A stretch of DNA of 64,000 nt from Vicinamibacterales bacterium (GTDB lineage: Bacteria; Acidobacteriota; Vicinamibacteria; Vicinamibacterales; Fen-181), in contig DASXVO010000016.1 in the NCBI GenBank assembly GCA_036504215.1, positions 1 through 64,000 of the forward strand. The letters run 5' to 3'. Numbering within the stretch: position 1 is the stretch's first letter; the number at the start of each line of letters is the position of its first letter. The notes under the pieces are model-generated. The model was not told where the DNA came from. It was given only the letters and a program-made list of their open reading frames with translations, and made no database searches. Made by a program: the position numbers and the translations under genes. Below are positions 4,535-22,446 of this stretch, in pieces.

Positions 4535-4651
4535 TACTGCCAAATACCGCCTCCGCTTTCCCCCTGGTTCGCCGTAGAATCGTCCTGCCATCGGTGACCG
4601 CACACAGGTGTCGGACTTGCCGCAGGTGGAGGTGCCGTGAGAACAGGAACC

Positions 4652-8558: not shown

Positions 8559-9548
8559 TCACCGTTTCATGTCCTTGTCGAAGGCGACGTCGGACGGTGC
8601 GAAGTTGATCCCGCGCACGAAGTCCAGCGACTCGCGCGCGCCGAACTCGCGGTCCATGCCGTTGTCCTCCCACTCGACCGACAGCGGCCCGGCGTAGCCG
8701 GCGGCGTTGAGTTCGCGGATGATCTCTTCGAAGTTGACGTCGCCGTGGCCGAGTGACCGGAAGTTCCACCCGCGCCGCAGGTCGCCGAACGGCAGGTGCG
8801 AGCCGAGGATGCCGGCCCGGCCGTCGAGCGTCACGCCGACATCCTTCATGTGTACGTGATAGACCCTCGACGCGAACGCGCGGATGAAGAGCTGCGGCTC
8901 GAGCCCCTGCCACACGAGGTGGCTCGGATCGAAGTTGAATCCGAGCGTGGGCCTGTCGTCGAACTTCCGCACGAGGCGTTCGGCGGTGTAGAAGTCGAAT
9001 GCAATCTCCGTCGGGTGGACCTCGAGGGCGAACCGCACGGCACGCCGATCGAACTCGTCGAGCAGCGGCGTCCAGAGTCCGTGAATCTCCTCGAACGCCG
9101 CCTCCACCATCTCTTCGGTCGTCGGCGGGAACGCGTACCAGGCGTGCCAGATCGGCGATCCCATGAACCCCGTCACCACGTGGCACCCCATCGCCTCGGC
9201 CGCGCGCGCAGTGGCCACCATCTCCTCGGACGCCCACCGACGAAGCGCCTCGGGCTTCCCTCTCGTGTCGGCCGGTGCGAACGCCATCAACCGCTCGTCG
9301 TAGCGATCGCCGACGCACTGCCCCGCCAGGTGCGCGCCGAGCGCCCAGCACCCGAGCTTGTGCCTCTCGAGAAGCCTGCGCTTCTCCCTCGCATAGGCCG
9401 GATCGGTCGCGGCCTTGCGGACGTCCATGTGGTCTCCCCAGCAGGCGATCTCCAGGCCGTCGTAGCCCCACGCCGAGGCCTTGCGGCAGATCTCCTCGAA
9501 CGGCAGGTCGGCCCACTGGCCGGTGAACAAGGTGACGGGTCTGCTCAT
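8559..9548 (-). CDS. Sugar phosphate isomerase/epimerase (xylose-isomerase-like TIM barrel), cytoplasmic
   Basis: AP_endonuc_2/TIM-barrel pattern (GYDGLEI...HVHMKD...EWED). No signal peptide. Start set at the internal ATG (MSRPVTLF); the track ORF has a 27-codon extension. Confidence 0.65.
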   Translation of the reverse strand: MSRPVTLFTGQWADLPFEEICRKASAWGYDGLEIACWGDHMDVRKAATDPAYAREKRRLLERHKLGCWALGAHLAGQCVGDRYDERLMAFAPADTRGKPEALRRWASEEMVATARAAEAMGCHVVTGFMGSPIWHAWYAFPPTTEEMVEAAFEEIHGLWTPLLDEFDRRAVRFALEVHPTEIAFDFYTAERLVRKFDDRPTLGFNFDPSHLVWQGLEPQLFIRAFASRVYHVHMKDVGVTLDGRAGILGSHLPFGDLRRGWNFRSLGHGDVNFEEIIRELNAAGYAGPLSVEWEDNGMDREFGARESLDFVRGINFAPSDVAFDKDMKR

Positions 9549-9583
9549 GCTGTGCTCCCAGGGCCTCCACCGAGGCCGGCGGT

Positions 9584-10759
9584 TCAGAACCTGACCCAGG
9601 CGGCGCCCTTTCGCGAGCTGGCGACGCATGCTTCGATGAATCTCACGCCGCGGATGCCCTCGTCCACACCCGGGAAATCCAGGTCTTCAGGCGCCAGCGG
9701 CTGGCCGGCGTTCTTCTTGATCAGCGCGCTCACGAACGCGAGGTAGATGTTGGCGAATGCCTCGAAGTAACCTTCGGGATGGCCCGCCGGAACCCGCGAC
9801 ATCCGCTGCGCGGCGGGATGCAGGGTGTCGCGGCCGCGCGACAGCCGCACGGTGGGCTTCCCCAGGTACGCCACCTCGCAATAGTTCGGATTCTCCTGCG
9901 ACCACTCGAGCGACCCCTTGGTCCCGTAGATCCGCACGCGAAGACCATTGTCCCTGCCGATGGCCACCTGGGACGCCCAGTAGAGTCCCTTCGCGCCGCC
10001 CTTGTACTCCACCAGGATGGATGCGTTGTCGTCCAGTGCGCGGCCGGCGACGAAGCGGTCGAGGCGTGCGAGCAGCGTGCGGATTTCGAGTCCGGTGATG
10101 TGCGTGACCATGTTCTCGATGTGGCTGCCGATGTCACCCACGCAGTTGGAGATCCCACTCCGACGCGGGTTGGCTCTCCAAGCCGCCTGCTTCTGGCCAG
10201 TGCGCTCGAGCGGCGTCGCCAGCCACTCCTGCGGATACTCCGCGGCCACGAAGCGAATGTCGCCGAGTTCGCCTTGCGCGACCATCTCGCGCATGTGCCG
10301 AACGATGGGATATCCCGTGTAGGTGTAGGTGACCCCGAACAGCAGCTTCGCCCGCTTCGCCAAAACGCCGAGCGCCCGAGCGTCGGCACTCGAGGTGGCG
10401 AGCGGCTTGTCGCACACCACGTGGATGCCGTGCTCGAGGGCGAGCTTCGCAATCGGAGCGTGCAGATAGTTGGGCGTCACGATGACCAGGAAATCGATCC
10501 CGTCCACTCGCTTCGCCTCCGCGCGGATCATCGTGCGGTAGTTCTTGTACAGCCGATCCGGCGCCAGGCCCAACGACCCGCCCGTCTCGAGCGTATTCTC
10601 GTAGTCTGCGGAGAAGCAACCCGCGGCGAGGTCGGCCAGACCGTCGAACGCGATGGCCTGCCGGTGCACGCTGCCGATGAAGGCGCCCCGCCCGCCGCCC
10701 ACCATGCCGTACCGAATCCTGCCGCCAGTGGCTGCCGCTGCCCGTCCTTCAATGGTCAT
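9584..10759 (-). CDS. Gfo/Idh/MocA family oxidoreductase, cytoplasmic
   Basis: N-terminal Rossmann region IRYGMVGGGRGAFIG...HVVCDKP and C-terminal GFO_IDH_MocA_C-like domain. No signal peptide. Confidence 0.75.
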   Translation of the reverse strand: MTIEGRAAAATGGRIRYGMVGGGRGAFIGSVHRQAIAFDGLADLAAGCFSADYENTLETGGSLGLAPDRLYKNYRTMIRAEAKRVDGIDFLVIVTPNYLHAPIAKLALEHGIHVVCDKPLATSSADARALGVLAKRAKLLFGVTYTYTGYPIVRHMREMVAQGELGDIRFVAAEYPQEWLATPLERTGQKQAAWRANPRRSGISNCVGDIGSHIENMVTHITGLEIRTLLARLDRFVAGRALDDNASILVEYKGGAKGLYWASQVAIGRDNGLRVRIYGTKGSLEWSQENPNYCEVAYLGKPTVRLSRGRDTLHPAAQRMSRVPAGHPEGYFEAFANIYLAFVSALIKKNAGQPLAPEDLDFPGVDEGIRGVRFIEACVASSRKGAAWVRF

Positions 10760-10766
10760 GATCGCC

Positions 10767-12767
10767 TCACGACTCGTTCTTCTTCATGCGTGTCCTGATC
10801 TTCTCGATGGCGGCCTCAGCCTCGGCCTTCACCGACGGTTCGCGCAGGAAGCTCGCAGCAAGGTCCAGCGCCTCCCCGCAGGGAAACTGCGTCAGCGCCC
10901 CGAGCACGAGCTTCTGCTCCTCCGGCCGCCACGCAAAACCCGCAGCCGATCTCAGGTCAGCGACAGCCGCCTCAGGATCCCGGTAATTGTCCAGTCCGAC
11001 GGTACGGACCAGGCCATGGATAGCCAGCAGGCGGTGGGTCTCGTTCCGGGAGTCCCGCGCCAGGCGGAAGATGTCGTCGCGCGCGGCGCCCGTCGGCCAC
11101 GCCGTCAGCGCACGCACCGCGGCGTCATACACCTCCGGATCGGCGTCGCCGAGCGCCCCTCTCACCACCGGCAACGCGCTGGCCTGACCAATCAACGGGA
11201 GCACGGCAATGAGTCGCCCCTTGGCCTTGGGATCCTTCTCCGCCGCCAGGCGGGTCGTCACCGCCCTCGACTGGTCGTTGGCGTTCGCCATCTTCCGCGC
11301 GAGGACGCCAACCGTCGTTTCCGCTTCCGACAACTCGCGGCCATCGTCGGCTCGGAGCAGCATTTCGAGCACCGCAGGAACGTCAGACGGCGTACCGATC
11401 ACGCGCAAGGATCTGAGCGCCTGCACCCTCACCCCGGTCGACGGCGAGCCGAGCGCGGCGACCACGACGCGCTCGGCGACGAACATCTGCCGGTCGGCCG
11501 CCGCCAACAGCAGTGCCCTCTCGACATCTTCGGTCGGCTTCGTCCCGAGCAACGAGAGGATCTCTTCGTCGACGGCACGGCCGGTCAGCCTTCCGAGCGC
11601 GGAACGGGCCGCCCCCTGTTCGGGGCCGCGGGCCTTCGCGGACTTGTCCAACAGGAATCGCACGACTGTGGCGTCGCCCGCCGCAGCCAGCGCGTTGGTC
11701 GAGGCGATTCGGACCATTGTCGAATCGCTTCGCGCGGCGAGAAGGACCGTCGGGAGCACCCGTTCTCTCGGGTAGGCGGCCAGCACGCTCAGCAACCGAA
11801 GCTGCAACGGCTCCGGAAGGCGAGGCAGGAGCGAACAGATTGGCTGGATCGTGTCGGGCGCCACCACGTCCCTGATCTTCGTGATGGCCGCTTCCTGGAG
11901 GCCGGGATCGGATCCACTGAGCAGGTCCATGAGGACCGCTGCTCCACGCGGCCCGCTGGTCGAAATCCTGCCGATGGCGATGGCTCGACGCAGTGGACCA
12001 GGCAGCGACGCGTCAGCCCAGAGCGTGTCGTACAGCCGCAGGGCGGCCGCGTCGTTCTTCGCCGCCGCAAAGGACTCCGCGCACGTCATCACGGCCGATG
12101 CAAACACCGGCTTGAGATCCGGACGTGCGATCGCGAATGCAGCCGTGAGCGCCTGCGCGGCCGCGTCTCCGCCGATGGCGCCCAGCGCAAAGACAGTCGC
12201 CCGGGCGAACTCGGCCTGCGCGAGCAGCGGAGCAAGCGCGGGGACCGCGTCCGCGTCCCGCCGTACTCCGATTGTCGAGATGACGGCAAGCCTCGCCGGG
12301 CCTGTCGACGTCGTCAGCGCCTGCACGAGCGCACGGCCAGCCACGCTGCCTGGGATCTGCCGCAGCACGTAGAGCGCCATGTCCACGGATCGCTCGTCCT
12401 TCAGCAACGCCTGCAGCGCAGGCACGGCGCTGTCGCCGGCGATCAGTCGCAGGTGACGGCAGGCGGCCATCCTGGCGACCGGCGTCGCCGGCGTCTTGAG
12501 AAACGCGAGCAGTCTTACTTCGCATTCCGCGCGCCCTGCGGGATCGTTCATCCGGGCGTGGACGTAGTCGCGGAGCTTCCACAGCGCGGCCGACTCGATG
12601 CTTCCCTGGTAGGAGGACACCTCCCGAAGGATCGCGTCGAGAGACTCGGCGGCCACAGACGCCTGCGCCCACAAAGCGCGATCGGCTCCCAGCAGAAGGC
12701 CGATCGCGATGAGGAGCACGCCGCAGGCCTTGGATGCGCGTGCCGGGGGCAAGGGGTGATGTGTCAT
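10767..12767 (-). CDS. Secreted HEAT/PBS-lyase repeat protein
   Basis: Signal peptide (MTHHPLPPARASKACGVLLIAIGLLLGADRALWAQA) then about 600 aa of repeating alpha-helical units (AVPAL..LL.D....VR..A..AL). GAGGTG RBS. The track ORF has a 211-codon spurious extension. Confidence 0.55.
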   Translation of the reverse strand: MTHHPLPPARASKACGVLLIAIGLLLGADRALWAQASVAAESLDAILREVSSYQGSIESAALWKLRDYVHARMNDPAGRAECEVRLLAFLKTPATPVARMAACRHLRLIAGDSAVPALQALLKDERSVDMALYVLRQIPGSVAGRALVQALTTSTGPARLAVISTIGVRRDADAVPALAPLLAQAEFARATVFALGAIGGDAAAQALTAAFAIARPDLKPVFASAVMTCAESFAAAKNDAAALRLYDTLWADASLPGPLRRAIAIGRISTSGPRGAAVLMDLLSGSDPGLQEAAITKIRDVVAPDTIQPICSLLPRLPEPLQLRLLSVLAAYPRERVLPTVLLAARSDSTMVRIASTNALAAAGDATVVRFLLDKSAKARGPEQGAARSALGRLTGRAVDEEILSLLGTKPTEDVERALLLAAADRQMFVAERVVVAALGSPSTGVRVQALRSLRVIGTPSDVPAVLEMLLRADDGRELSEAETTVGVLARKMANANDQSRAVTTRLAAEKDPKAKGRLIAVLPLIGQASALPVVRGALGDADPEVYDAAVRALTAWPTGAARDDIFRLARDSRNETHRLLAIHGLVRTVGLDNYRDPEAAVADLRSAAGFAWRPEEQKLVLGALTQFPCGEALDLAASFLREPSVKAEAEAAIEKIRTRMKKNES

Positions 12768-12781
12768 CGTTGCACCTCGGA

Positions 12782-14104
12782 TCACGCGGGAACCTGGTAC
12801 GGCTTCCGGTAGGATCGCGACAGCAGCCGCTCCGCGCCGGCGTCGCCAATCAGCGTCTCGGTGGCAGGGTCCCATTTGATCTTCCTGCCCGTTTCGATCG
12901 CGATCACGCCCAGGTGTCCGACGCTCGCGGACCGGTGCGCGACCTCGGCGGGCGCGATGGTCAGCGCGCCGCTCCTGATGCAGTCGAGGAAGTTCTGCTG
13001 GTGATCGCGGCTGTGGTACAACCGAGTCTCGTTCGGTCCGATGACCTCGTTGACCAGGTGCGCAGGCTGGCTCTCGAATCCGCCCCGGTCCACCCACACC
13101 CAACCGCGCTCGCCAATCCACTTCGTCCCGCTCTGGATTTCCGGGTAGCCGCCAGCCAGGATGATCGGTGTCCCGTCCGCGTAGAGCGTATCGACCCAGT
13201 ACCGGGTCGGACTGTTGTAGATGCCGGTTGTCGGGAACTCGGCCCGGCCCGAGACCTCGACGGGCCCGGTGTGATCGAGACCCAGCGCCCAGTGCGCGAT
13301 GTCGAGGTGGTGGCCGACCCAGTCCATCAACTGGCCACCGCCGAAGTCCATGTTCCAGCGCCAGTTCATGTGCACGCGCGCCCTGCAATACGGCGACCAT
13401 GGAGCGGGACCCAACCAGGTGTCGTAGTCGAATCCGGACGGAGGGTTCTCGAGCTTCTCCTGCCCAAATGTGCCGGCGAAGTCGTGGTGGCCCGACGGAA
13501 GCCCCACCTCAACTCGCTGAACCCTGCCGATTCGCCCGTTGCGGACCAGTTCGCACGCGCGGTGGAAGTTCTCGACCGACCGCTGCCAACTGCCCGTCTG
13601 CCACACGCGGCCGTACCGTTCGACCGCGTCGCAAAGCGCGCGTCCTTCGCGCAGGCTGTGCGTGAACGGCTTCTCGCCGAACACGTGCAGGCCGGCCCTG
13701 AGCGCCTCGATCGACAGGATTGCGTGCCAGTGGTCGGGAACGGCGATCGACACCGCGTCGAGGTCGCCGCGCGCGTACAGCTTCCGGTAGTCCTTGTAGA
13801 CCGCGCAGTCAGCCGTGCCGTACGCGGTGTTGACGGTCTCCTGCGCCTTTCGCAGCGGGCCGTCGTCGAGGTCGCAGACCGCCACCCATTGGACCTCGTT
13901 CTTGCCGAGAAACGAGCGCATGTTGGACGGCCCCTGCATGCCGAACCCGATGCCGGCCATGACGATGCGGTCGCTGGGCGGAGTGACTCCGTGGCGGCCC
14001 AGCACTGACGCCTCGACGATCGTCGGAAATGCCGCGGCACCGGCGATTGCCACGGGTGCCTGCTTCAGGAATTCCCGGCGGGAACACGAAGAGTGCTTGT
14101 TCAT
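12782..14104 (-). CDS. Gfo/Idh/MocA family oxidoreductase with twin-arginine (TAT) signal
   Basis: MNKHSSCSRREFLKQAPVAIAGAAAF TAT signal followed by a Gfo N-terminal Rossmann domain (IVMAGIGFGMQG...HVFGEKP). Ends 14 nt upstream of the HEAT protein start. Confidence 0.75.
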   Translation of the reverse strand: MNKHSSCSRREFLKQAPVAIAGAAAFPTIVEASVLGRHGVTPPSDRIVMAGIGFGMQGPSNMRSFLGKNEVQWVAVCDLDDGPLRKAQETVNTAYGTADCAVYKDYRKLYARGDLDAVSIAVPDHWHAILSIEALRAGLHVFGEKPFTHSLREGRALCDAVERYGRVWQTGSWQRSVENFHRACELVRNGRIGRVQRVEVGLPSGHHDFAGTFGQEKLENPPSGFDYDTWLGPAPWSPYCRARVHMNWRWNMDFGGGQLMDWVGHHLDIAHWALGLDHTGPVEVSGRAEFPTTGIYNSPTRYWVDTLYADGTPIILAGGYPEIQSGTKWIGERGWVWVDRGGFESQPAHLVNEVIGPNETRLYHSRDHQQNFLDCIRSGALTIAPAEVAHRSASVGHLGVIAIETGRKIKWDPATETLIGDAGAERLLSRSYRKPYQVPA

Positions 14105-14269
14105 CGCATCCTTTCCAGGGACATCTGCCGCGGTCGAACATGCCGCCAGGGATGCAACTTCCTGTGTCGGGCGTGGAAGCTGTCCTATAATGCGCGCGAT
14201 TCTACAACAGGCGTTGGCCGGGCGAATAGGAATGTGCCTGGCGCACCGGCAACCCGAGGAGCGACGACC

Positions 14270-15136
14270 ATGAACCGAAGCCGCGATCTGACACGCCGAT
14301 CGTTTCTTGGAATGGCCGGCGCCGTGCCGCTGGCCTGGGGACTGGCGAACGCGTCGACGGCTGCGGAGGCCGGCAGGCTCCCGATTGCCCTTCAGCTCTA
14401 CTCGGTCCGCCGTGACTGCCAGCAGGACTTCGACGGCGCGCTCGAGCAGGTCGCGGCCATGGGCTTCGAGGGCGTGGAGTTCGCCGGCTACTTCGGCTAC
14501 GCGGACAGGGCGCGCGAGTTGAAGGCGAGGCTCCAGTCCCTCGGGCTGAAGGTGGCGGGCACGCACATCGGCCTCGACACGCTGCAGAACGACGCGCTGA
14601 AGCGGACGATCGACTTTCACCAAGCAATCGGTTGCCGTTTCCTGATCGTGCCAAGCAATCCGGCCTTCACGGACCCCGAGAAGAGCAAGGCCCTCGCCGA
14701 AACGTTCAATCTGTTGGCGGCCACGTTGAAGCCGCTCGGCATGGCCTGCGGTTTCCACAACCACAAGGCCGAGTTCCAGAAGGACGGCGCCAAGACCTAC
14801 TGGGACCTCTTCGCCGAGCGCACGAGCCAGGACGTCATCCTCCAGCAGGATTGCGGGTGGACGTGGGCGGCCGGCTTCGACCCAGTGGCCTACGTCCGGA
14901 AGTACCCCGGACGCACGAAGACGACCCACTTCAAACCGACCATCCGGCAGGACGACGCCGGAAAGAGAGCCATCCTCGGACAGGACTCGGTGGACTGGAA
15001 AGCCGTCTACGCGGCGTGCTCGTCGGTTGGCGGAACGGAGTGGGTTGTCGTGGAGCAGGAAACGTACCCGGACGGCAAGACGCCGATGCAGTGTACCCGG
15101 GAATCGCTCGCGGGCCTGAAGGCGCTGATCGGGTAG
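14270..15136 (+). CDS. Xylose-isomerase-like TIM-barrel protein (sugar phosphate isomerase/epimerase family) with TAT signal
   Basis: MNRSRDLTRRSFLGMAGAVPLAWGLANA TAT signal. TIM-barrel motifs (GFEGVEF...FHNH...VVEQE). GAGGAG RBS. Confidence 0.7.
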   Translation: MNRSRDLTRRSFLGMAGAVPLAWGLANASTAAEAGRLPIALQLYSVRRDCQQDFDGALEQVAAMGFEGVEFAGYFGYADRARELKARLQSLGLKVAGTHIGLDTLQNDALKRTIDFHQAIGCRFLIVPSNPAFTDPEKSKALAETFNLLAATLKPLGMACGFHNHKAEFQKDGAKTYWDLFAERTSQDVILQQDCGWTWAAGFDPVAYVRKYPGRTKTTHFKPTIRQDDAGKRAILGQDSVDWKAVYAACSSVGGTEWVVVEQETYPDGKTPMQCTRESLAGLKALIG

Positions 15137-16333
15137 ATGGAGGAGCCAATGGAAGCGACGGTAGCCCGTAGGACGTCCGTTCTCGCGTTGATGGCCGTGT
15201 TCGGTCTCGGCATCTCCTTCATCATCATTGGAGCGATCTCCGAGGAACTGAAGAGGGATCTCGGTGTGACGAACGCGGAGATCGGCAACCTGGTTCTCGC
15301 GCTGTTCCTCACGAGCGTGGTCGTGCAGCTCATCACCGGCCCGCTGGTGGACCGGTTCGGGCACAAGCCGCTGGCGATCGTCGGGTTCCTGGTCGCGAGC
15401 CTGAGCATGTTCCTGATCGGGCTGGCGCCGAACGTCGCCACGGCGTTCGTCGCGTGCATCCTGCTGGGCATCGGCGCCATGTGTCTGAACACCGTGGGCA
15501 ACACGCTCATCCCCGTGGTGCTCTTCGACGGCAAGGACCCGGCGCGCGCCAGCAACTTCGGCAACGCGTTCTTCGGCCTCGGCTACGTCATCACGCCGTT
15601 GCTGTTCTCGCTGATGGCCGGGGCGGGGCTCGGCTACAGGACCGGCGTCTACCTGCTCGGCGGGCTGTTCCTCGTCTTCCTGGTGGCCGCCGTCGGCTCG
15701 ACGTTCCCGCGCGTGTCCACCGGCTACGAGTTCTCGATGGCGTTCAAGTTGCTCGGCAAACGGGCGGTGCTCGTCGCCGCGCTCGCACTGTTCTGCTACA
15801 TCTCGCTCGAGATCAGCATGGCCACGTGGAGCAAGCCGTACATGACGGAGTTGTTCGGCGGGGCCGCGAATCCTGGGGCCGTGTCCAGGGCCGGGCTGAT
15901 CCTGAGCCTGTTTGGCGTGGCCATGATGGTCGGTCGCTTCCTGACATCGATGGTGAAGAACCTGACGACCATCGGCGTCAGACTGATCGCGGCGATGGCC
16001 CTGGTGGCGATGGGAGCCATCCTCACGATGATTCTCACAGAGATCCCGGCGCTGGCCGTCGTGGCCGTGGTTGTGACGGGCCTGGTCTTCGCGCCGATCT
16101 TCCCGACGATAGTCGGCGTGACGTTCGCCAAGTTCGAACCGAAACTCTACGGCAGCATTTTCGGGATCATCTTCGCCGTCGGGCTCCTCGGTGGCACGTT
16201 CGTGCCGCAGATCATCGGGAGCCTGAGCGTCGGCGCGACGATCCAACAGAGCCTCCTCATCGTGCTGGCGATGGCGGCGGCGCTGTTCGTGATCTCGCTG
16301 TTCCTCAGGTCGAGATCGGAGTCTGCCTCCTGA
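15137..16333 (+). CDS. MFS transporter (probable sugar transporter)
   Basis: 398 aa with 12 predicted TM helices. Starts 1 nt after the stop of the TIM-barrel gene. Confidence 0.7.
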   Translation: MEEPMEATVARRTSVLALMAVFGLGISFIIIGAISEELKRDLGVTNAEIGNLVLALFLTSVVVQLITGPLVDRFGHKPLAIVGFLVASLSMFLIGLAPNVATAFVACILLGIGAMCLNTVGNTLIPVVLFDGKDPARASNFGNAFFGLGYVITPLLFSLMAGAGLGYRTGVYLLGGLFLVFLVAAVGSTFPRVSTGYEFSMAFKLLGKRAVLVAALALFCYISLEISMATWSKPYMTELFGGAANPGAVSRAGLILSLFGVAMMVGRFLTSMVKNLTTIGVRLIAAMALVAMGAILTMILTEIPALAVVAVVVTGLVFAPIFPTIVGVTFAKFEPKLYGSIFGIIFAVGLLGGTFVPQIIGSLSVGATIQQSLLIVLAMAAALFVISLFLRSRSESAS

Positions 16334-16400: not shown

Positions 16401-17816
16401 CTAGAACGTCCAGCCGCTGCGGTAGTGGTGCTGGACCAAGTCGTTCGCTTCCGGGTGGTTCGTGACCGTCATCCTGGGACCGTCCCACACGAGCTTGACT
16501 CCGGGGAACGCGACACCGAGATTGCCGAGCAGCACGGCCTCGGTGAACGGACCGGCGTAGTTGAAATCCGAGACGGCCTTCGTCTTGCCCTTGATCGCGT
16601 CAATCCAGTTCTGCTCGTGGCTGCCGACTACTCGCGCGATCGACTTGCGCGGGCGCTTGTAGGCCTGCATGCGCCGCTCGGGAATCAACCGCGGGCTGCC
16701 CGAGTACGTCTCGCACATCAGCTTCCCCTTGTCGCCAACGAAGATCGTCCCGCTCTCGGGCAACGTACGATCCGGTTCCAGTTCCTCCGGACGTTCGGGA
16801 AGCAGGCCTCCGTCGTACCAGTGAAGCTTCACGGCAGGGTACTTCTTGCCGCGGTCCGGGAAGGTGTAGTGGACGATCGTCGCCGGAGGATAGCTGTCCT
16901 TGTACTGCAGCCTCACGTTCGACGTCCCGCCGCCCTCGCGCGGGACCTCGATGACCTGGTAGGCAAGAAACGCGGTCACGCTGGTCGGATATCCGAGTTT
17001 CAACGCGGTGTAGGCGGCATCCATGACGTGACACGCCATGTCGCCGAGGGCGCCGCACCCGAAGTCCAGCCACGAGCGCCAACTGAACGGGTGATAGGCC
17101 TTGTGGTATGCCCGAAGCGGCGCCGGTCCGAGCCAAAGGTCCCAATCGAGACCGTCGGGCACCGCCGGTGTGTCGGTCGGCCTTGGCATGCCCTGCGGCC
17201 AGATCGGTCGATTCGTCCAACAGTGCACCTCGCGGACCTTGCCAATCGCGCCATCGGCAATCCATTCCTCGATGAGCCGCACGCCCTCGCCCGAGTGCCC
17301 CTGGTTCCCCATCTGGGTGACGACCTTGTACCGACGCGCGGCCTCGGTCAGCGCCCGCGCTTCCGACACGGTCCGCGTCAGTGGTTTCTGGACGTAGACG
17401 TGCTTGCCCAACTGCATGGCGGCGATCGCGATGACGGCGTGGCTGTGGTCGGGAGTGGCGACGATGATCCCGTCGATGTCCTTCTGCTTCTCCAGCATCA
17501 CGCGGTAGTCGCGGTACCTGGTGGCGTTCGGAAACTCCTCGAACACCTTCGTACGAGCAGCCCGGACGCGTGCCGCGTCGCTGTCGTCCACGTCACAGAG
17601 CGCGACGACGTTCTCCGCGGCACACGCCTTGGTGTTGGCCGTCCCCATGCCGTGGACGTACCCGACCGTCGCGATGTTCACGCGGTCGCTCGGCGCCTGG
17701 TACCCGGGCCCGCCCAGCACGTGGCGCGGCACGATCATGAATCCGGCGGCGGCCGCCATGCCTCCCACGAACCTGCGACGCGAGATCCCGTTCGCGAGCG
17801 TGTTCTGATCGTCCAT
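16401..17816 (-). CDS. Gfo/Idh/MocA family oxidoreductase with TAT signal
   Basis: SRRRFVGGMAAAAGFMIV TAT signal. Gfo Rossmann domain (VNIATVGYVHGMG...HVYVQKP). 471 aa. Confidence 0.75.
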   Translation of the reverse strand: MDDQNTLANGISRRRFVGGMAAAAGFMIVPRHVLGGPGYQAPSDRVNIATVGYVHGMGTANTKACAAENVVALCDVDDSDAARVRAARTKVFEEFPNATRYRDYRVMLEKQKDIDGIIVATPDHSHAVIAIAAMQLGKHVYVQKPLTRTVSEARALTEAARRYKVVTQMGNQGHSGEGVRLIEEWIADGAIGKVREVHCWTNRPIWPQGMPRPTDTPAVPDGLDWDLWLGPAPLRAYHKAYHPFSWRSWLDFGCGALGDMACHVMDAAYTALKLGYPTSVTAFLAYQVIEVPREGGGTSNVRLQYKDSYPPATIVHYTFPDRGKKYPAVKLHWYDGGLLPERPEELEPDRTLPESGTIFVGDKGKLMCETYSGSPRLIPERRMQAYKRPRKSIARVVGSHEQNWIDAIKGKTKAVSDFNYAGPFTEAVLLGNLGVAFPGVKLVWDGPRMTVTNHPEANDLVQHHYRSGWTF

Positions 17817-17831
17817 GTCCGTTCCTCGGGT

Positions 17832-18692
17832 TCAGGTTGTTGTCCGACTCTCAGGGGTCGGGAAGTGTCTCACCTCGCCCTCGAGGATCCAGGCTTCGAG
17901 CCCTGAGTACTGACGACAGCAGCGTTCGATTTCATCGAAGGCGTTCACCATGAACGCGGTTGAGAGCGCATCCGCCACGGCTGCAGCCGACGCCTCGACG
18001 CCCGCCACGCGGCAGATGTCCCCAAGGACGCTGCGCGGCGCGGAGACCCAGGCGGCAGGCCTCGATCGCACCGGCGCCCGATCACGCGCATTCCAGATGT
18101 GCTCGCCCTTCTGGAGCCCCGACGCGCCGAGCGCCTGCTGTCTGGCCTCGAGTCGCGCGAGAATCACGGTCGGCGTCGCAGGACGGCTGAGGGTCAGCGG
18201 CCACCCCCCGAGTCCGGACGGCGGGTCCAGCGCCAGGACCGAACTGTAGCCGGCATCCACGAGGACCTGGGTGACCTCCCAGTCTTCCAGAATCTCCGCC
18301 ATCCGATCCACCGCGTAGCCCTTGCCGATGGCACCCAGATCGAGGCGCACACCATCGGCCCGCGCCCGCACGAGAAATTCGTCCGGCACCAACTCCAGGC
18401 TCTCGAAGCCTGTGCCGACCGACACGTCGAATGCTCCGCGCGTGTCAGCGTAGATGAGATCCGCCAGCCGCAGGCACTGCATCGTTTCGTAGCCGACGAC
18501 CGTCGATTCCCCGGACGACAGATGGTTGATCCGCGCGATGTCACTGTTCTCGACGAACCGGCTCAGCTGTTGCTCCAGGCGATCGACCGTCTCGAAGGCG
18601 GCCCTCGCAGCCTGCCGCGCGTAGCGCTCGTCCGGATGCGCCGACCGGATCTCGAACCGCGTCGCCATGGCCGCGTGCTGGAGCGCGATCAT
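17832..18692 (-). CDS. apbE: FAD:protein FMN transferase (ApbE family)
   Basis: ApbE hallmarks SRFVENSDIARIN and DLGAIGKGYAVDR. The ATG overlaps the TGA of the upstream cytochrome gene (ATGA). No signal peptide from this start. The track ORF has a 222-codon out-of-frame-overlapping extension. Confidence 0.65.
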   Translation of the reverse strand: MIALQHAAMATRFEIRSAHPDERYARQAARAAFETVDRLEQQLSRFVENSDIARINHLSSGESTVVGYETMQCLRLADLIYADTRGAFDVSVGTGFESLELVPDEFLVRARADGVRLDLGAIGKGYAVDRMAEILEDWEVTQVLVDAGYSSVLALDPPSGLGGWPLTLSRPATPTVILARLEARQQALGASGLQKGEHIWNARDRAPVRSRPAAWVSAPRSVLGDICRVAGVEASAAAVADALSTAFMVNAFDEIERCCRQYSGLEAWILEGEVRHFPTPESRTTT

Positions 18693-21043
18693 CCCCGGAT
18701 CTCGTGGTGTCCGCGCATCCACGCCACCAGGGCACAACACGTGAACAGGCCTGAGCATCCGATCAGCGGCCAGACCGCATACCGGTGGACGAAAAACAGG
18801 CCGCCCTGCCGGACCGACGCCAGCATCGGGAACATCGCCAGCGTGGCCGACACCGCCGCGGGAATGGCGGCGCTCACCGCCAGCCAGAAGCACAGCTTCC
18901 GGCACACCACGACGTAGGGGTTTGCCGCCCGCGATGTTGCCGCGCCGAGGGGCCAGCGCACGCGGTTGACATCCGCGCGGCCGAGGCGATTCCGCTCGGC
19001 CCAGAACAGCGTGATCAGCACGGCCCCGGCAATGAAGACCGGCGCCGACGCGACGTGAATCATCAGCCGGTATCCGGTGAGCGCACGCCCTGACAGCAGC
19101 GCGGGCCATCCACTGGCCACACTCGCCACGCACGCACTCAGGCCAACCAGATTGATTGCGACCCGCCCGAGTGGTCCTCGTTCGGTCGCTGCCGAGACGC
19201 GACCGATGGCCCGCATCACGTACGTCAGCAGGAGCAGCACCAGGACTGTCGCGCCAGCCGTGACGGAGCCCTCGAGCCACGGACGGTAGCGGAACGTGCG
19301 AGCGAAGTCGGCGACGTAGCCTGTGTCCAGGCCCTGCTGGAACCGGTTCATCGTCCACGATTCGCCGCGTTCGGACGCCAATGGGGAATCCACTGGCACC
19401 CGACTGTAGAAGACCGGCGCGTTCGCGTCATGACAGTCCGTACAGCCTCTTGCGCCGAGAGCCAGGCCAGCCGGTCGGACGTCGTGGGCCATCTGCCACA
19501 GATAGGGTTGCGCCGATGGGTGGGCATCCGACGCCATTCGCCCCGATCCGTCCAAACGGTGCAGCCTGCCGCCCGCCACATACACCGGTGTGCCCTCTGC
19601 CCTCGGCTCGTCGCGCAGGAGGCCGAGAATCGCCACGACGGTCTGGTTGTCGAGGTTTGGCCAACTCCCGTCGGGCGAGAGACTCAGCTTCACGCGAGCC
19701 CTCGACATCACGTTCTTGACGCGGTCGGGCAGAATCGGACGCACCGTGCCGTTCGCCATGCGCCCCCAGAAAGCGGGCCACAACAGCCGGTTCGGCGTCA
19801 TCACGCCATCGTCGGGCCGAGCGAACACCGGATAGTACAGGTGAGGCAGGACGTCGCCGGACTTGTTGACGTTCAGCCCGCCGAGGCGATGCGACTGGCT
19901 GGTCTTGAGCCGACGTGCCGTGGCGCCGGGCGCCGGCCCCGAGTGGCACGCGGTACACGAGAGCTTCGTCAGGTGAATGGGCGGAAGACCCGCGTGCCGT
20001 GGATATGGAGCTCCCAGCCGTCCGCGCGCGAACACCCGATCGCCTTCGCCCGCCAGGTGACAACCCCGGCACGACGCAACCGCGGCGCCTGGCCTGCTGG
20101 CTGAAGACTCCCCTTCGTACCCACGTGTCATCCCGTGGTCGAGGCCGTTTCGGTGACAATCGACACACGACATGCCGCGCGAGAGGTGAATGTCCTCGTC
20201 CGCGTTCCACCGTCCCTGCCCCGTCTGTTCCGTGTCGGCGTTCGAGTGACAGAAGTAGCATCGCCGGGCGGGCACCTCCCGGACGATGTCGAAGACGACC
20301 GTGGCGCCAGGGAGGAAGCGCTCCGGCGCGTAGACAACGGCGGGCCGCCTGAGTAGCAACGCGTCCTCGACGAATGGCAGCAGGTAGTCGAAGGTGTTTG
20401 GCATCTCCTTCGCGGCACCCGTCACCTGTGCCATGCCGCTCGCGGCCGTGGTCGCCCACCGGAAGTTCTCGAGCGAGAGTTGACGGCCGTACTCGGCGTG
20501 ATCGTACGCCGGCGACGCGTCGTGACAGGCGAGGCAGTTGGGCTCGAGGTCGCCCGATACCGCCCATCGCGCCATCAACGGCGGATTCGGCTCGCGCTCT
20601 CCGGTGATGCCGCCCGGCGTGCGCGCCCCGAACAGCCTGGCGAACGCCCACGGCGTGATGCCGATTTCGTCCGGACCGTATGTGCCCGGCCACCCGTGGT
20701 ACGACAACGGCAGCTGGGTTCCTGTCTCAGGATCCGCCAGGATCCACGGCTCGCCGCGCCGGCCTGGCATCGGTCCAGGAGTGGCCGTCTTGAAGTGCCA
20801 GCCGCGGCTGATGGTCGCCACATCGTGGCAGTCGGACGCGCAGGTTCGAACCGTGGAGAATGGCAGCAGCGGCCGGTCGGAGGGCCGAATCACCTCGCCG
20901 TCTGCGTCGCGCAGCTGGATGCGGTGCACGGGGCGTGCGCGGCTGCCGTCGCTCTGGTCGCCCCTCAGCGGGAGCGCGCGCTGCGGCGACGGTGTCGATG
21001 CGGGCCGCGTCTGGACCGGGCCCGCGAGGAGCAGGAGGGCCAT
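18689..21043 (-). CDS. Multiheme (7x CxxCH) c-type cytochrome fused to a C-terminal polytopic membrane domain
   Basis: Seven CxxCH motifs (CASDCH, CLACH, CYFCH, CVDCH, CRGCH, CTACH, CTDCH) in the N-terminal 560 aa. About 5 hydrophobic helices with conserved His residues in the last 200 aa. Start chosen at MALLLLAGPV; the track ORF has a 271-codon extension. Confidence 0.65.
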   Translation of the reverse strand: MALLLLAGPVQTRPASTPSPQRALPLRGDQSDGSRARPVHRIQLRDADGEVIRPSDRPLLPFSTVRTCASDCHDVATISRGWHFKTATPGPMPGRRGEPWILADPETGTQLPLSYHGWPGTYGPDEIGITPWAFARLFGARTPGGITGEREPNPPLMARWAVSGDLEPNCLACHDASPAYDHAEYGRQLSLENFRWATTAASGMAQVTGAAKEMPNTFDYLLPFVEDALLLRRPAVVYAPERFLPGATVVFDIVREVPARRCYFCHSNADTEQTGQGRWNADEDIHLSRGMSCVDCHRNGLDHGMTRGYEGESSASRPGAAVASCRGCHLAGEGDRVFARGRLGAPYPRHAGLPPIHLTKLSCTACHSGPAPGATARRLKTSQSHRLGGLNVNKSGDVLPHLYYPVFARPDDGVMTPNRLLWPAFWGRMANGTVRPILPDRVKNVMSRARVKLSLSPDGSWPNLDNQTVVAILGLLRDEPRAEGTPVYVAGGRLHRLDGSGRMASDAHPSAQPYLWQMAHDVRPAGLALGARGCTDCHDANAPVFYSRVPVDSPLASERGESWTMNRFQQGLDTGYVADFARTFRYRPWLEGSVTAGATVLVLLLLTYVMRAIGRVSAATERGPLGRVAINLVGLSACVASVASGWPALLSGRALTGYRLMIHVASAPVFIAGAVLITLFWAERNRLGRADVNRVRWPLGAATSRAANPYVVVCRKLCFWLAVSAAIPAAVSATLAMFPMLASVRQGGLFFVHRYAVWPLIGCSGLFTCCALVAWMRGHHEIRG

Positions 21044-21096
21044 CGTGAACCCGGCGTCGCGTGCCCACCGCCCGATGCCGGATGCCGCATTCCGGC

Positions 21097-22446
21097 TCAA
21101 GTTCGGACCTCGAAGTCCCCGGGGTCGAAGATCACCGGGCGCCGGAGTTCGACCGCCTCGTTGACCTTCAGCACCGTGACTGCCGTCTCGTATCCCGTGT
21201 CGGCCGGACAGGTCAGTTGAGCCCGGCCGCGGACGGCGTCGAAGAAGTTCTCCAGGTGCGGCTGATGATAGAGCTTCTGCGACTGGACGGGAATGGCGTA
21301 GCTCGGCGGAGGCGCCGTCTCCCTCACGTCGAGCACCGCCAGCGTCTGCGGCTGCGGCTTCGGCTCGTCTTTCGGCGCCGCCAGAAGGCCGCGCTTCACC
21401 AGTGAACCCCAGTCGGGCGCGTTCGCCACGTCGCGGTACACCTTGGCCCTGGCGCCAGATTCGGAGATCTCCAGCGAACCCTGGTCTCCCATGAACAGCT
21501 CGAAGTAGCCGCCGAAGCCGTTCGTGGTTCCGGTCTGGTAGAACGCGCGGACCGTGCCCGTCGAGGTCGGGTACTCGTACACCGCCATGACGGTGTCGTA
21601 CCACTCGTGCGTGTCCGCGCCGTAGTAGTCGGTGCCGCCACTCGCCATTACGCTCCGTGGACGGGCGCCGAGAAACCAGTTGAAGATGTCGATCTGGTGC
21701 GACCCGAGGTCCACGATCGGGCCGCCGCCCAGGCCTCGATACCAGCGCCAGTTCAGGAACTGCTCCATCGAGCGGAAGCCATACTTCTCGAGCGTGGCGG
21801 GCGGGATCGCGTATTTCGCCGGCATGGTCACGAGGTCCTGCCGGGACCGGTTCCACTGGCCGTTGACCGTGGTGATCCTGCCGAGGAGCGACGCCTCGCG
21901 GAGCAGTTTCTGATAGCTGAACCGGTATCGCGGATTGCTGCGGCGCTGGTGTCCGACCTGGACGAGCTTGCCCGATTCTCTCGCCGCGCGCACGATGCGC
22001 CGGGCATCCTCCAGCGTGTTCGACATCTCCTTCTCACAGTAGACGTGCAACCCGGCCTTCAGGCAGGCGATCGTGTGATCGGCGTGCCAGAAATCAGGGG
22101 TCGCGATGATTGCCGCGTCCAGCCTGCCCTTCTCCTTGTCCAGCATCTCCTGGATGTCGACGTAGGCGGTGTGGACGTGACCGTAGATCCGCAGGCGACC
22201 CGAGACGTATTTCTGCCGGTATTCCTTCCAGATATCGCACAGCGCGGTGATGCGGACGTTGGGAATCTTCTGACACGACTCGAGCAGCACCATGCCCTGG
22301 TTGCCCGCCCCGACGAGGGCGACCCGCAGGTCGTTGGTGCCGCCGGCGCCCGCGGCCGCCGCGCCCGTGCCCAGCGCCAGTCCTGCTGCCGTGACCTTCA
22401 GGAAGTCACGTCGGTCGATTGTCCTGCCGCTGCCGTTCGGGTCCAT
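21097..22446 (-). CDS. Gfo/Idh/MocA family oxidoreductase with TAT signal
   Basis: RTIDRRDFLKVTAAGLALGTGAAAA TAT signal. Gfo Rossmann domain (LRVALVGAGNQG...HVYCEKE). Stop is 53 nt upstream of the cytochrome start. Confidence 0.75.
   Translation of the reverse strand: MDPNGSGRTIDRRDFLKVTAAGLALGTGAAAAGAGGTNDLRVALVGAGNQGMVLLESCQKIPNVRITALCDIWKEYRQKYVSGRLRIYGHVHTAYVDIQEMLDKEKGRLDAAIIATPDFWHADHTIACLKAGLHVYCEKEMSNTLEDARRIVRAARESGKLVQVGHQRRSNPRYRFSYQKLLREASLLGRITTVNGQWNRSRQDLVTMPAKYAIPPATLEKYGFRSMEQFLNWRWYRGLGGGPIVDLGSHQIDIFNWFLGARPRSVMASGGTDYYGADTHEWYDTVMAVYEYPTSTGTVRAFYQTGTTNGFGGYFELFMGDQGSLEISESGARAKVYRDVANAPDWGSLVKRGLLAAPKDEPKPQPQTLAVLDVRETAPPPSYAIPVQSQKLYHQPHLENFFDAVRGRAQLTCPADTGYETAVTVLKVNEAVELRRPVIFDPGDFEVRT

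Follow-up and report, generated by a model that had tools for sequence, protein, structure and literature searches.

A conserved gene pair encoding an exported sugar dehydrogenase-type protein and a membrane-anchored heptaheme cytochrome in a soil acidobacterium

Gene organization of the cluster

In a 64,000-nucleotide stretch of DNA from a Vicinamibacterales bacterium (GCA_036504215.1, contig DASXVO010000016.1, positions 1 to 64,000; hereafter the window), four consecutive genes on the minus strand encode GfoA, a 784-residue cytochrome, an ApbE-family protein, and GfoB. Their coordinates are listed in Table 1 together with those of the surrounding genes. GfoA and the cytochrome genes are separated by 53 bp, the ATG of apbE overlaps the TGA of the cytochrome gene as ATGA (−4 bp), and apbE and gfoB are separated by 15 bp. 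No internal promoter- or terminator-like sites were found, although this is weak evidence. Pfam searches confirmed the GFO_IDH_MocA assignment of both Gfo proteins (PF01408, PF22725, and PF02894 in GfoA), the ApbE assignment (PF02424, 111 bits), and a Cytochrome_C7 match in the cytochrome (residues 282-368; 31 bits, cut-off 24.8). The N-termini of GfoA, ...TIDRRDFLKVTAAGLALG..., and GfoB, ...ISRRRFVGGMAAAAGF..., carry Tat signals, that of GfoA fitting a twin-arginine signal.

The observation made in an earlier note, of two Tat-exported Gfo/Idh/MocA dehydrogenases flanking a multiheme membrane cytochrome and an ApbE, therefore holds. One correction is needed: the note counted seven CxxCH motifs in the cytochrome, whereas we find six (residues 170, 262, 293, 325, 363, and 534) and one CxxxCH (C68-ASD-C72-H73). 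CxxxCH is the usual form of this first site in the family, being present in 87 of 120 homologues, while 23 have CxxCH. The note's bundle of about five transmembrane helices corresponds to hydrophobic segments at residues 592-610, 625-650, 662-680, 711-735, and 756-774, with which the AlphaFold model agrees, although the heme-rich core of that model has low confidence. The annotated N-terminus of the cytochrome (MALLLLAGPVQTRPAS) is a weak signal peptide. Since homologues have normal Sec signals, the true start may lie upstream at a non-standard codon.

Table 1. Coordinates of the genes and domains of the cluster in the window
Position	Strand	Feature	Observations
21097..22446	-	GfoA, Tat-exported Gfo/Idh/MocA NAD-type dehydrogenase (449 aa)	
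18689..21043	-	Cytochrome (784 aa)	
19289..21043	-	Periplasmic heptaheme c domain of the cytochrome (residues 1-585)	
18689..19288	-	C-terminal membrane domain of the cytochrome, one anchor helix plus a four-helix FdnI/HyaC-type cytochrome b bundle	
17832..18692	-	ApbE-family FAD:protein FMN transferase (286 aa), no signal peptide	
16401..17816	-	GfoB, Tat-exported AL3/BT2158-type glycoside 3-dehydrogenase (471 aa)	
15137..16333	+	MFS transporter, convergent with GfoB; probable sugar or keto-sugar importer (inferred)	Pfam MFS_1, E=3e-32; related loci carry an MFS or NCS1 permease at the equivalent place
14267..15136	+	Tat-signal xylose-isomerase-like TIM-barrel protein (AL1/BT2156-like)	Pfam AP_endonuc_2, E=4e-16; N-terminus MNRSRDLTRRSFLG
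12782..14104	-	Third Tat-signal Gfo/Idh/MocA protein (440 aa)	Pfam PF01408 and PF19051; NCBIfam BT_2158_fam, 168 bits; N-terminus ...SRREFLK
10767..12767	-	HEAT-repeat protein, a frequent neighbour of the cluster	Pfam HEAT_2, E=1e-25; a homologue lies upstream of GfoA or GfoB in several Planctomycete loci
9584..10759	-	Cytoplasmic Gfo/Idh/MocA protein (391 aa, no signal), in the AL4/BT2159-like role (inferred)	Identified by Pfam; best NCBIfam hit levoglucosan dehydrogenase, 102 bits, below cut-off
8559..9629	-	Cytoplasmic xylose-isomerase-like TIM-barrel protein, start codon uncertain	Pfam AP_endonuc_2, E=2e-39
7876..8541	-	Secreted F5/8-type-C (discoidin-like) protein, stop overlapping the start of the next gene	Pfam F5_F8_type_C_2, E=9e-7; orthologues lie next to the Agl23-like gene in most loci
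6317..7879	-	Agl23-like GT-C membrane protein (TIGR03663 / PMT_2)	NCBIfam TIGR03663, 178 bits, cut-off 126; Pfam PMT_2; in other phyla immediately upstream of ApbE, often with overlapping start and stop codons
5509..6327	+	Secreted ThuA-domain protein	Pfam PF06283, E=1e-44; close orthologues in two of the compared loci (L001 and L012)
4637..5425	+	DUF1080 / 3-keto-disaccharide hydrolase (AL2/BT2157-like)	Pfam PF06439, E=1e-45; DUF1080 genes flank GfoA in most loci
3770..4534	+	GT2 glycosyltransferase, resembling polyprenyl-phosphate sugar synthases	Pfam Glycos_transf_2; weak NCBIfam hits to polyprenyl-phosphate and dolichyl-phosphate hexose transferases; a homologue lies next to ApbE in at least 17 loci

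Conservation of GfoA and the cytochrome

The cytochrome belongs to a large, unnamed family. In 63 aligned homologues, all heme-motif cysteines and histidines, as well as nine further histidines, are invariant. In 40 aligned GfoA orthologues, the same holds for the Tat RR-x-F motif, GxGxxG, the EK (EKP-type) motif, and D-x-x-x-H. These features are thus not chance occurrences. No solved relative of the heptaheme domain was found by sequence or by fold. The membrane domain is a quinone-pool-type cytochrome b homologous to FdnI, the quinone-reducing subunit of a periplasmic dehydrogenase, and is not NrfD-like. It keeps only the periplasmic-side (bP) heme ligands, with His663 and His753 as the conserved pair.

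A GfoA orthologue lies directly upstream of the cytochrome in 62 of the 66 genome loci with enough flank, and when the look-up was started from GfoA, the cytochrome gene was found directly downstream in 4 of 4 cases, with gaps of 0-77 bp. The neighbourhood is strongly conserved across at least six phylum-level groups: Acidobacteriota, Planctomycetota, Omnitrophota, Calditrichota, KSB1, and 'Cytophagia'. One complete genome locus (L082) has a shorter cytochrome and no ApbE within 10 kb. GfoA orthologues from other phyla are 57-88% identical, and between Acidobacteriota and Planctomycetota the identity is 57-65%, compared with 39-49% for the cytochrome, which is what a docking partner would show. 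The fold of GfoA matches glucose-fructose oxidoreductase (GFOR) and sugar 3-dehydrogenases, the closest being Zymomonas mobilis GFOR (Foldseek E=1e-20).

In contrast, GfoB is not a constant partner of the cytochrome. It is only 27% identical to GfoA, which forms a separate, more conserved subfamily, and it varies in copy number (0-5) and position, with 1-5 tandem copies in Planctomycete loci. GfoB matches NCBIfam NF058561 (BT_2158_fam) with 519 bits, below the equivalog cut-off of 750, and the structures 8tdf_A (E=1e-103) and 8tdh_A (E=1e-100).

The ApbE and the surrounding pathway genes

The ApbE was found within 9 kb downstream of the cytochrome in 39 of 51 loci. The profile of its clade hits ApbE structures at E=1e-15 to 1e-22, and the GKG, His198, and ADALST motifs are kept. 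However, this clade has no signal peptide or lipobox, and none of 18 members has a hydrophobic N-terminus, so the protein is probably cytoplasmic rather than a periplasmic partner of the cytochrome. A search for flavinylation motifs, which had been proposed as a test, gave a negative result: no D-x-x-[ST]-G-A-[ST] or [ST]GA[ST] site is conserved in the cytochrome, the Gfo proteins, or any real ORF of the window. The ApbE travels with the GT2, the Agl23-like GT-C protein, and the F5/8-type-C protein.

The four genes form the core of a cluster of about 19 kb, which also holds the DUF1080 and ThuA proteins, two TIM-barrel proteins, two more Gfo proteins, a transporter, and the GT2/GT-C/F5-8-C module. 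Every component of the 3-keto-glycoside pathway is present in this cluster.

A proposed periplasmic sugar:quinone oxidoreductase

These observations offer an explanation, which we hold with moderate confidence only, in which GfoA and the 784-residue protein form a conserved periplasmic dehydrogenase:quinone oxidoreductase. GfoA would carry its nicotinamide cofactor with it upon Tat export and oxidize a sugar hydroxyl in the periplasm, the most likely substrate being glucose or a glycoside, oxidized to its 3-keto form. The electrons would then pass along seven bis-His c-type hemes to one b-type heme in the FdnI-like bundle, and from there to the quinone pool, menaquinone being expected in these phyla. 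In this view, the module is embedded in an AL/BT2156-9-type 3-keto-glycoside pathway consisting of GfoB-type glycoside 3-dehydrogenases, a TIM-barrel eliminase, a DUF1080 hydratase/hydrolase, a transporter, and cytoplasmic Gfo reductases. It would give that pathway a respiratory electron sink, either directly or by regenerating the 3-keto-sugar that re-oxidizes the NADH trapped in the GfoB enzymes, and may explain how such enzymes are recycled. The need for this is acknowledged in the literature, where the acceptor of BT2158 is unknown (PMC8121099).

What our analysis shows is the gene anatomy, the conservation of the heme and Tat motifs, the homology of the membrane domain to FdnI, and the obligate synteny of GfoA and the cytochrome; electron transfer between the two proteins, its direction, the substrate, and the quinone are inferred from sequence and structure comparisons alone, without experimental data. 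To our knowledge, there is no precedent for direct electron transfer from enzyme-bound NAD(P)H to c-type hemes, and how a two-electron hydride carrier would hand single electrons to hemes remains unresolved. The syntenic ApbE suggests a covalent FMN as converter, but no target site was found and the ApbE, lacking an export signal, appears to be cytoplasmic. Moreover, as only one b-heme ligand pair is conserved and the position of FdnI His18 is Tyr, the quinone site cannot be placed.

The interpretation given in the earlier note, a self-contained conduit from periplasmic sugar oxidation to the respiratory chain serving two such dehydrogenases, is partly supported. The multiheme protein, its probably quinone-facing membrane domain, and the conserved neighbourhood are borne out, and, as the note supposed, no description of this architecture was found in the searchable literature. 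However, the two Gfo proteins are not equivalent, the four genes are not self-contained, and the suggested involvement of the ApbE is not supported by a flavinylation site. Nor do periplasmic Gfo enzymes strictly need an external acceptor, as the note had stated: GFOR uses fructose, and AL3/BT3, whose NAD is tightly bound, is proposed to recycle it by reducing 3-ketoglucose.

Since AL3/BT3-type enzymes can run redox-neutrally, a sink is not strictly required, and all periplasmic Gfo enzymes, including GfoA, might recycle their bound NAD with the 3-keto-sugar made later in the same pathway, as in GFOR or GH109. The cytochrome would then be co-regulated but serve another periplasmic redox task, for example extracellular or periplasmic electron transfer as a CbcL-like quinol oxidase, fused multiheme c/cytochrome b proteins being known as quinol oxidases for extracellular electron transfer. 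The close relationship of GfoB to AL3/BT3 and the lack of a flavin site would fit this, but we consider it unlikely, as co-regulation alone poorly explains a pairing with near-zero gaps across six phylum-level groups, GfoA is distinct from GfoB, and no porin or outer-membrane cytochrome genes were seen among the genes identified in the cluster loci. Reverse flow, with the cytochrome delivering electrons from quinol to GfoA for reduction of a periplasmic keto-sugar or other carbonyl compound, appears very unlikely. Cytochromes b of the FdnI/HyaC family and multiheme c membrane proteins of the CbcL and NapC/CymA types work in either direction in different systems, and Gfo enzymes are reversible and do reduce 3-ketoglucose. 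However, reducing bound NAD+ (about −320 mV) from menaquinol (about −75 mV) is strongly uphill, there is no sign of an energy-coupling subunit, and the pathway already has reductants in the GfoB-NADH of the periplasm and the NAD(P)H-linked Gfo enzymes of the cytoplasm.

It is also possible, though doubtful, that the ApbE, GT2, Agl23-like, and F5/8-type-C genes form a separate envelope-modification module, for example for O-glycosylation of secreted proteins, in which the ApbE has no role in electron transfer between GfoA and the cytochrome and flavinylates a target encoded elsewhere, such as Nqr, Rnf, or a cytoplasmic reductase. The link of the ApbE to the cytochrome itself is looser than that to the Agl23-like gene, with only 15 of 69 loci having it within 2 kb, no motif occurs in any cluster protein, and GT2 and GT39 genes also flank the AL operon in the Alistipes fosmid. 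Cytoplasmic ApbEs serving cytoplasmic reductases are known, such as that of Klebsiella pneumoniae, which likewise lacks a signal peptide and flavinylates a soluble fumarate reductase; its target, however, carries a canonical FMN_bind domain and motif, and no such target is encoded in this cluster. On the other hand, the module stays in the same cluster as GfoA and the cytochrome across distant phyla, and in the window and its closest relatives the ApbE has moved to sit immediately after the cytochrome, which argues for a functional tie.

Comparison with known systems

The membrane domain resembles the formate dehydrogenase-N gamma subunit FdnI and hydrogenase-1 HyaC (Pfam PF01292), but it has an extra anchor helix and is fused, or in other phyla adjacent, to a heptaheme c domain rather than partnered with an Fe-S subunit. 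In addition to the His18 position being Tyr, the His169 position is His only in Planctomycete split forms, and the protein in the window therefore probably binds one b heme, not two. Geobacter sulfurreducens CbcL, an inner-membrane cytochrome, also joins a periplasmic multiheme c domain to a membrane b-type cytochrome domain that interacts with the quinone pool in one polypeptide. It has nine c hemes, six helices, and two b hemes, acts as a menaquinol oxidase for extracellular electron acceptors, and is not paired with a dehydrogenase.

Like GfoA, Z. mobilis GFOR is a Tat-exported Gfo/Idh/MocA enzyme, with non-dissociable NADP, but it is about 19% identical, uses a second sugar as acceptor, and has no redox protein partner. 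The AL1-AL4 / BT2156-BT2159 pathway of gut Bacteroidota (Liu 2021; Nasseri 2024) shares the GfoB-type enzyme, the DUF1080 and TIM-barrel proteins, a cytoplasmic Gfo, and, in the Alistipes fosmid, nearby GT2 and GT39-like genes with the present cluster, whereas those operons have no cytochrome, no GfoA-type enzyme, and no ApbE. The FAD-dependent glucoside 3-dehydrogenase/LacABC system, also encoded next to DUF1080 hydrolases, couples periplasmic formation of 3-keto-glycosides to cytochrome c and the respiratory chain. Its catalytic subunit is a GMC-type flavoprotein not homologous to GfoA, in which the step from two electrons to one is built in, and its cytochrome is small and has no cytochrome b domain.

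Gene organization

The four open reading frames described in the earlier note lie on the minus strand exactly as that note states, and its observation therefore stands. They encode GfoA (449 aa, with a DRRDFLK Tat motif), a 784-aa cytochrome, ApbE (286 aa), whose ATG overlaps the preceding TGA as ATGA, and GfoB (471 aa, with an SRRRFV motif and the N-terminus ISRRRFVGGMAAAAGF, a twin-arginine signal). The gaps between them are 53, −4, and 15 bp, and since the flanking genes are divergent (a Tricorn-like protease of about 1140 aa) and convergent (an MFS transporter), a four-gene operon is the simplest reading. A scan for consensus promoters and terminators was uninformative. Pfam and NCBIfam searches confirmed the domain assignments. 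Proteins identical to GfoA and ApbE occur in an NCBI Vicinamibacterales (Acidobacteriota) MAG. The Tricorn-like protease, and a Tat-signal GH2 glycosidase elsewhere in the window, do not appear to be linked to the cluster.

Two details differ from the earlier note. Instead of seven CxxCH motifs, the cytochrome contains six CxxCH motifs and one CxxxCH (C68ASDCH). In addition, its annotated N-terminus is short, lacks a charged n-region and makes a poor signal peptide, whereas homologues have clear Sec-type signals, so that the start codon is uncertain and may be mis-set. The in-frame upstream sequence (GIGRWARDAGFT) resembles the n-region of homologues but contains no ATG, GTG, or TTG; an ATC is the only candidate start.

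Positions of features in the window and in related genome loci (L numbers denote loci encoding relatives of the cytochrome)
Sequence	Position	Strand	Feature
Window	3770-4534	+	GT2 gene
Window	5509-6327	+	Secreted ThuA-domain protein
Window	6317-7879	-	Agl23-like GT-C protein (TIGR03663)
Window	7876-8541	-	Secreted F5/8-type-C protein
Window	16401-22446	-	GfoA, cytochrome, ApbE, and GfoB
Window	20839-20856		First heme motif of the cytochrome (residues 63-73)
Window	21043-21097		Annotated start of the cytochrome and upstream sequence
Window	21076		ATC, candidate start of the cytochrome
Window	22292-26065	+	Tricorn-like protease, divergent from GfoA
Window	29588		Spurious hit to the flavinylation motif
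Window	53293-55806	+	Tat-signal GH2 glycosidase
L003, Acidobacteriota MAG	11453-11510		Low-complexity insertion in the cytochrome orthologue
L053, Planctomycete locus	6111-8303		TIM-barrel/DUF1080 fusion
L053	11892-12500		Split cytochrome b gene
L053	15581-19800		GT2, Agl23-like, and F5/8-type-C genes travelling with ApbE
L083	9173-13297		GT2, Agl23-like, and F5/8-type-C genes travelling with ApbE
L082, Planctomycetota chromosome CP070715	11426-13511		GfoA orthologue followed by a shorter multiheme protein and a 208-aa protein

The cytochrome family

A search of a collection of 5.8 billion proteins returned more than 2000 relatives of the 784-aa protein, all of them unnamed or annotated as hypothetical. 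An exhaustive profile search found 513 representatives (clusters at 50% identity) at E<=1e-30 and 1232 at E<=1e-10. The Pfam model Cytochrome_C7 matches the window protein with 31 bits against a cut-off of 24.8. In an alignment of 63 homologues, every Cys and His of the seven heme sites is invariant, as are nine further histidines (residues 40, 83, 286, 303, 350, 357, 385, 401, and 520) and one methionine (Met565), which is enough for bis-His ligation of all the predicted hemes. The spacing of the first heme motif varies within this one orthologous family: it is CxxxCH in 87, CxxCH in 23, and CxxxxCH in 2 of 120 homologues.

No solved relative was found by sequence, and the periplasmic part of the AlphaFold model (mean pLDDT 70, with the heme-rich core below 50) gave no fold match. 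Membership of the NapC/NirT/CymA quinol dehydrogenases (PF03264) was not supported, since the match scored 17.6 bits against a cut-off of 24.1 over 46 residues only, and the architecture differs from the tetraheme domain with a single N-terminal helix expected there. The family comes in two forms: proteins of about 800 aa, as here, with a heme domain followed by five helices, and proteins of about 600-650 aa, in which the heme domain is followed by one anchor helix and a separate membrane protein of about 200 aa is encoded next.

The membrane domain

The separate membrane protein of the split orthologue in L053 scores 33.1 bits against PF01292, prokaryotic cytochrome b561/Ni_hydr_CYTB (cut-off 30.1), and the one in L083 has a precomputed PF01292 hit; the window protein alone gives no such Pfam hit at E<0.01. 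A profile of 19 split proteins plus the C-terminal 200 residues of the window protein, however, hits E. coli FdnI (PDB 1kqf_C) at E=4e-7, and the domain is predicted to adopt a four-helix bundle fold. The NrfD-like domain suggested as a possibility in the earlier note was rejected in favor of an FdnI-like one.

The two invariant histidines, His663 and His753 in the window protein, lie on FdnI His57 and His155, the ligands of the periplasmic-side heme b. The four histidines that would ligate two b hemes are not all present: the position of FdnI His18 is Tyr throughout, and that of His169 is His only in Planctomycete split forms. The window protein therefore most likely binds one b heme. The Planctomycete split forms carry a second His 14 residues after the conserved one on the last helix, as in FdnI His155 and His169, and also a His on an extra N-terminal helix. 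They may therefore bind two b hemes and work electrogenically, whereas the fused acidobacterial form keeps only one pair.

Conservation of the neighborhood

Of at least 514 genome loci found to encode relatives, we retrieved 80, which according to their record titles belong to Acidobacteriota (13), Planctomycetota (48), Omnitrophota (3), Calditrichota (3), KSB1 (1), and 'Cytophagia' (4), with 8 unclassified. Searches of these loci by tblastn with the proteins of the window showed that a GfoA orthologue, 49-84% identical, ends within 1 kb upstream of the cytochrome on the same strand in 62 of 66 loci with enough flank. When the search was started from GfoA homologues instead, the multiheme gene was found directly downstream in all four look-ups, with gaps of 0-77 bp. 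GfoA is better conserved than the cytochrome, with 57-65% against 39-49% identity between Acidobacteriota and Planctomycetota. GfoB-type genes, in contrast, vary in number (0-5, in tandem in Planctomycetes) and in position.

The recurrent extended order comprises one or more GfoB genes, a TIM-barrel/DUF1080 fusion, GfoA, the c-type cytochrome, cytochrome b, a cytoplasmic Gfo and an NCS1 or MFS permease (present in many loci), the F5/8-type-C protein, the Agl23-like GT-C protein, ApbE, and a convergent GT2 gene. The window holds all of these between about 3.8 and 22.4 kb, together with a secreted ThuA-domain protein and a HEAT-repeat protein. An NqrA-F operon between the cytochrome and ApbE in Planctomycetes was considered and rejected, as the genes there are cytochrome b, a Gfo, an NCS1 permease, the F5/8-type-C gene, and the Agl23-like gene.

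The Gfo enzymes

GfoB matches the NCBIfam model NF058561 (BT_2158_fam, 'glycoside 3-dehydrogenase') over its full length with 519 bits (E=9e-156). Since this is below the equivalog cut-off of 750, it is a relative of the BT_2158/AL3 family rather than a certified equivalog. It also matches PDB entries 8tdf (chain A, E=1e-103) and 8tdh at E of about 1e-100. We infer that these two entries belong to the deposition series of the AL/BT study, because 8tdi in the same series is named 'P2B11 glucuronide-3-dehydrogenase', a protein of that paper. With DUF1080 (3-keto-disaccharide hydrolase), the TIM-barrel proteins, and the cytoplasmic Gfo proteins, the cluster reproduces the AL1-4/BT2156-9 pathway.

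GfoA belongs to a distinct Gfo/Idh/MocA subfamily. It scores only 71 bits against BT_2158_fam, over the N-terminal half, is 27% identical to GfoB over the N-terminal 272 residues, and its best PDB sequence hits reach only about E=1e-17. It contains the Rossmann NAD(P) and C-terminal domains (PF01408, PF22725, and PF02894), and the GxGxxG, C-E-K-E, and D-L-G-S-H motifs of cofactor binding and catalysis are invariant. Its fold is closest to those of GFOR, scyllo-inositol dehydrogenase, glucuronide-3-dehydrogenase, and levoglucosan dehydrogenase.

ApbE and the search for a flavinylation site

The ApbE protein is a genuine member of its family: it matches PF02424 with 111 bits, the profile of its clade hits the structures of characterized ApbEs at E=1e-15 to 1e-22, and the GKG, catalytic His (His198), and ADALST motifs are kept. 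None of 18 aligned clade members, however, has a signal peptide or lipobox; there is no hydrophobic N-terminal segment, and the domain starts at residue 5-30. The large survey of flavinylation systems removed genes without such signals and kept only clusters in which a target gene had one, so it would probably have missed this clade. Cytoplasmic ApbEs are known. No fusion of ApbE to a partner was found among the 120 best homologues. The acidobacterial ApbEs of the clade, including that of the window, lack a segment of about 23-27 residues after the GAFD motif (columns 178-204 of the ApbE clade alignment), which is present in Planctomycete, Omnitrophota, and canonical ApbEs.

ApbE lies within 9 kb downstream of the cytochrome in 39 of 51 loci. 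Its tightest neighbors are the Agl23-like GT-C gene, often with overlapping codons, the F5/8-type-C gene, and a GT2 gene; in the window and its nearest relatives, it has moved to sit directly behind the cytochrome.

The earlier note had proposed a search for the motif D-x-x-[ST]-G-A-[ST], and this search was negative. A six-frame scan of the window for [DNGE]xx[ST]G[AS][ST] gave a single hit, which lies outside the called gene and is spurious, and no such motif occurs in any real ORF of the window. A scan of 15 cluster proteins for [ST]G[ASG][ST] gave only SGGT in GfoA and TGGS in the 391-aa Gfo protein, and the SGGT site was rejected because its last residue is I or V in about a third of the orthologues that still have ApbE. 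Across the 80 loci, no conserved [ST]GA[ST] was found in the cluster proteins. Nor does any conserved Ser/Thr column of the cytochrome, GfoA, cytochrome b, or the F5/8-type-C protein have a motif-like context, the nearest being the cytochrome loop RWAxAAAS(202)G, which lacks the Asp and the first Ser/Thr and has Cys in some members. In the cytochrome orthologue of L003, an in-frame low-complexity insertion (GATSGATSGATSGATSGAASGATS) in the variable loop before the invariant VY[IV]AGG contains five copies of SGAT, the core of the flavinylation motif, but it occurs in only one of the 80 loci and may be due to chance.

Proposed function and alternatives

The best-supported reading is that GfoA and the cytochrome form a periplasmic sugar:quinone oxidoreductase that gives the 3-keto-glycoside pathway an electron sink, a model that we consider about as likely as not. 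GfoA could pass its own electrons to the hemes; alternatively, it could also regenerate the 3-keto-sugar that re-oxidizes the NADH trapped in the GfoB enzymes. This fits the conserved synteny and the FdnI homology, FdnI and HyaC serving periplasmic dehydrogenases that reduce quinone, as well as the stated gap in the field, since the acceptor of BT2158 is 'as yet unidentified'. While the gene organization, the conservation of the motifs, the homology of the membrane domain to FdnI, and the synteny follow from the sequences themselves, electron transfer is inferred from synteny and homology alone; covalent heme binding is likewise inferred, and a tightly bound, non-exchanging cofactor in GfoA is inferred only from Tat export and from the analogy with GFOR and AL3. 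The interpretation in the earlier note, of a dedicated conduit from two periplasmic Gfo dehydrogenases to the respiratory chain with a flavinylating enzyme, is supported only in part.

The weak point of the model is the hand-over from a hydride carrier to one-electron hemes, which normally needs a flavin. The conserved ApbE hints at one, but no site was found among the proteins scanned, and the enzyme would be on the wrong side of the membrane unless it modifies a Tat substrate before export. Three other explanations compete with the model, namely redox-neutral chemistry with an unrelated cytochrome, reverse electron flow, and an ApbE/glycosylation module that is independent of the other genes. 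As to the direction of flow, thermodynamics, on established redox potentials, favor that from sugar to quinone. A more far-reaching possibility, which we regard as unlikely but which the evidence does not rule out, is that the enzyme-bound nicotinamide cofactor is wired to the heme chain through a covalent FMN installed by a route not yet described: either the signal-less ApbE would flavinylate GfoA, as a Tat substrate, at a non-canonical site in the cytoplasm before export, or an FMN moiety would be carried across the membrane by the co-conserved GT2 and Agl23-like GT-C machinery and attached in the periplasm. Either route would make this the first NAD-nicotinoprotein:multiheme:quinone respiratory dehydrogenase and would reveal a new mode of flavinylation.

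Modules coupling a periplasmic dehydrogenase to a cytochrome and quinone are already known. The membrane domain is an FdnI/HyaC relative with one heme pair missing, the fused c/b architecture resembles CbcL, the pathway context is that of AL/BT2156-9, and the functional analogue is the FAD-type glucoside 3-dehydrogenase/LacABC with cytochrome c. None of these combines an NAD-type Gfo enzyme with a multiheme c/b module, and literature searches for a Gfo-plus-multiheme system found no description of one in the library searched. What appears to be new here is this combination, with a new cytochrome family; the apparently cytoplasmic ApbE is unexplained.

Tat-exported Gfo/Idh/MocA enzymes are very abundant in Planctomycetota, Acidobacteriota, Verrucomicrobiota, and Bacteroidota, and the 3-keto-glycoside route they drive was recently shown to be a broad, non-Koshland way of cleaving glycans. 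How their trapped NAD(H) is recycled in the periplasm is an acknowledged open question (PMC8121099; bioRxiv 10.1101/2024.03.25.586180), for which this widespread cluster, with one invariant Gfo partner, a predicted heptaheme chain, and a putative FdnI-like quinone module, offers a concrete candidate that is testable genetically and biochemically. If confirmed, it would link polysaccharide and glycoside breakdown directly to respiration in major soil and sediment phyla and define a new cytochrome family. It would also raise a sharp mechanistic problem, the step from hydride to single electrons, with the ApbE as a lead.

Associated genes and variants of the cluster

The GT2, Agl23-like GT-C, and secreted F5/8-type-C proteins travel together with ApbE across phyla, and GT2 and GT39 genes are also reported next to the AL operon in the Alistipes fosmid of Nasseri et al. 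This module may serve the glycosylation of a secreted component or the delivery of flavin; possible targets of glycosylation are the Pro/Ser/Thr-rich N-terminal linker of the cytochrome and the F5/8-type-C protein. The secreted ThuA-domain protein (PF06283, E=1e-44) is encoded next to the DUF1080 gene, and close orthologues are present only in the nearest acidobacterial loci (L001 and L012); ThuA partners the Gfo-family ThuB in the rhizobial dehydrogenase that forms 3-keto-disaccharides. In Planctomycetes, the gene upstream of GfoA encodes a single fusion of 720-740 aa, in which a xylose-isomerase-like TIM barrel is joined to two DUF1080 domains, as in L053 and at the equivalent places in L027 and L046. 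These are the AL1- and AL2-type activities, as assigned by homology, in one secreted protein. In L082, the multiheme protein that follows the GfoA orthologue is only 453 aa long and no ApbE lies within 10 kb, which looks like a reduced variant of the module.
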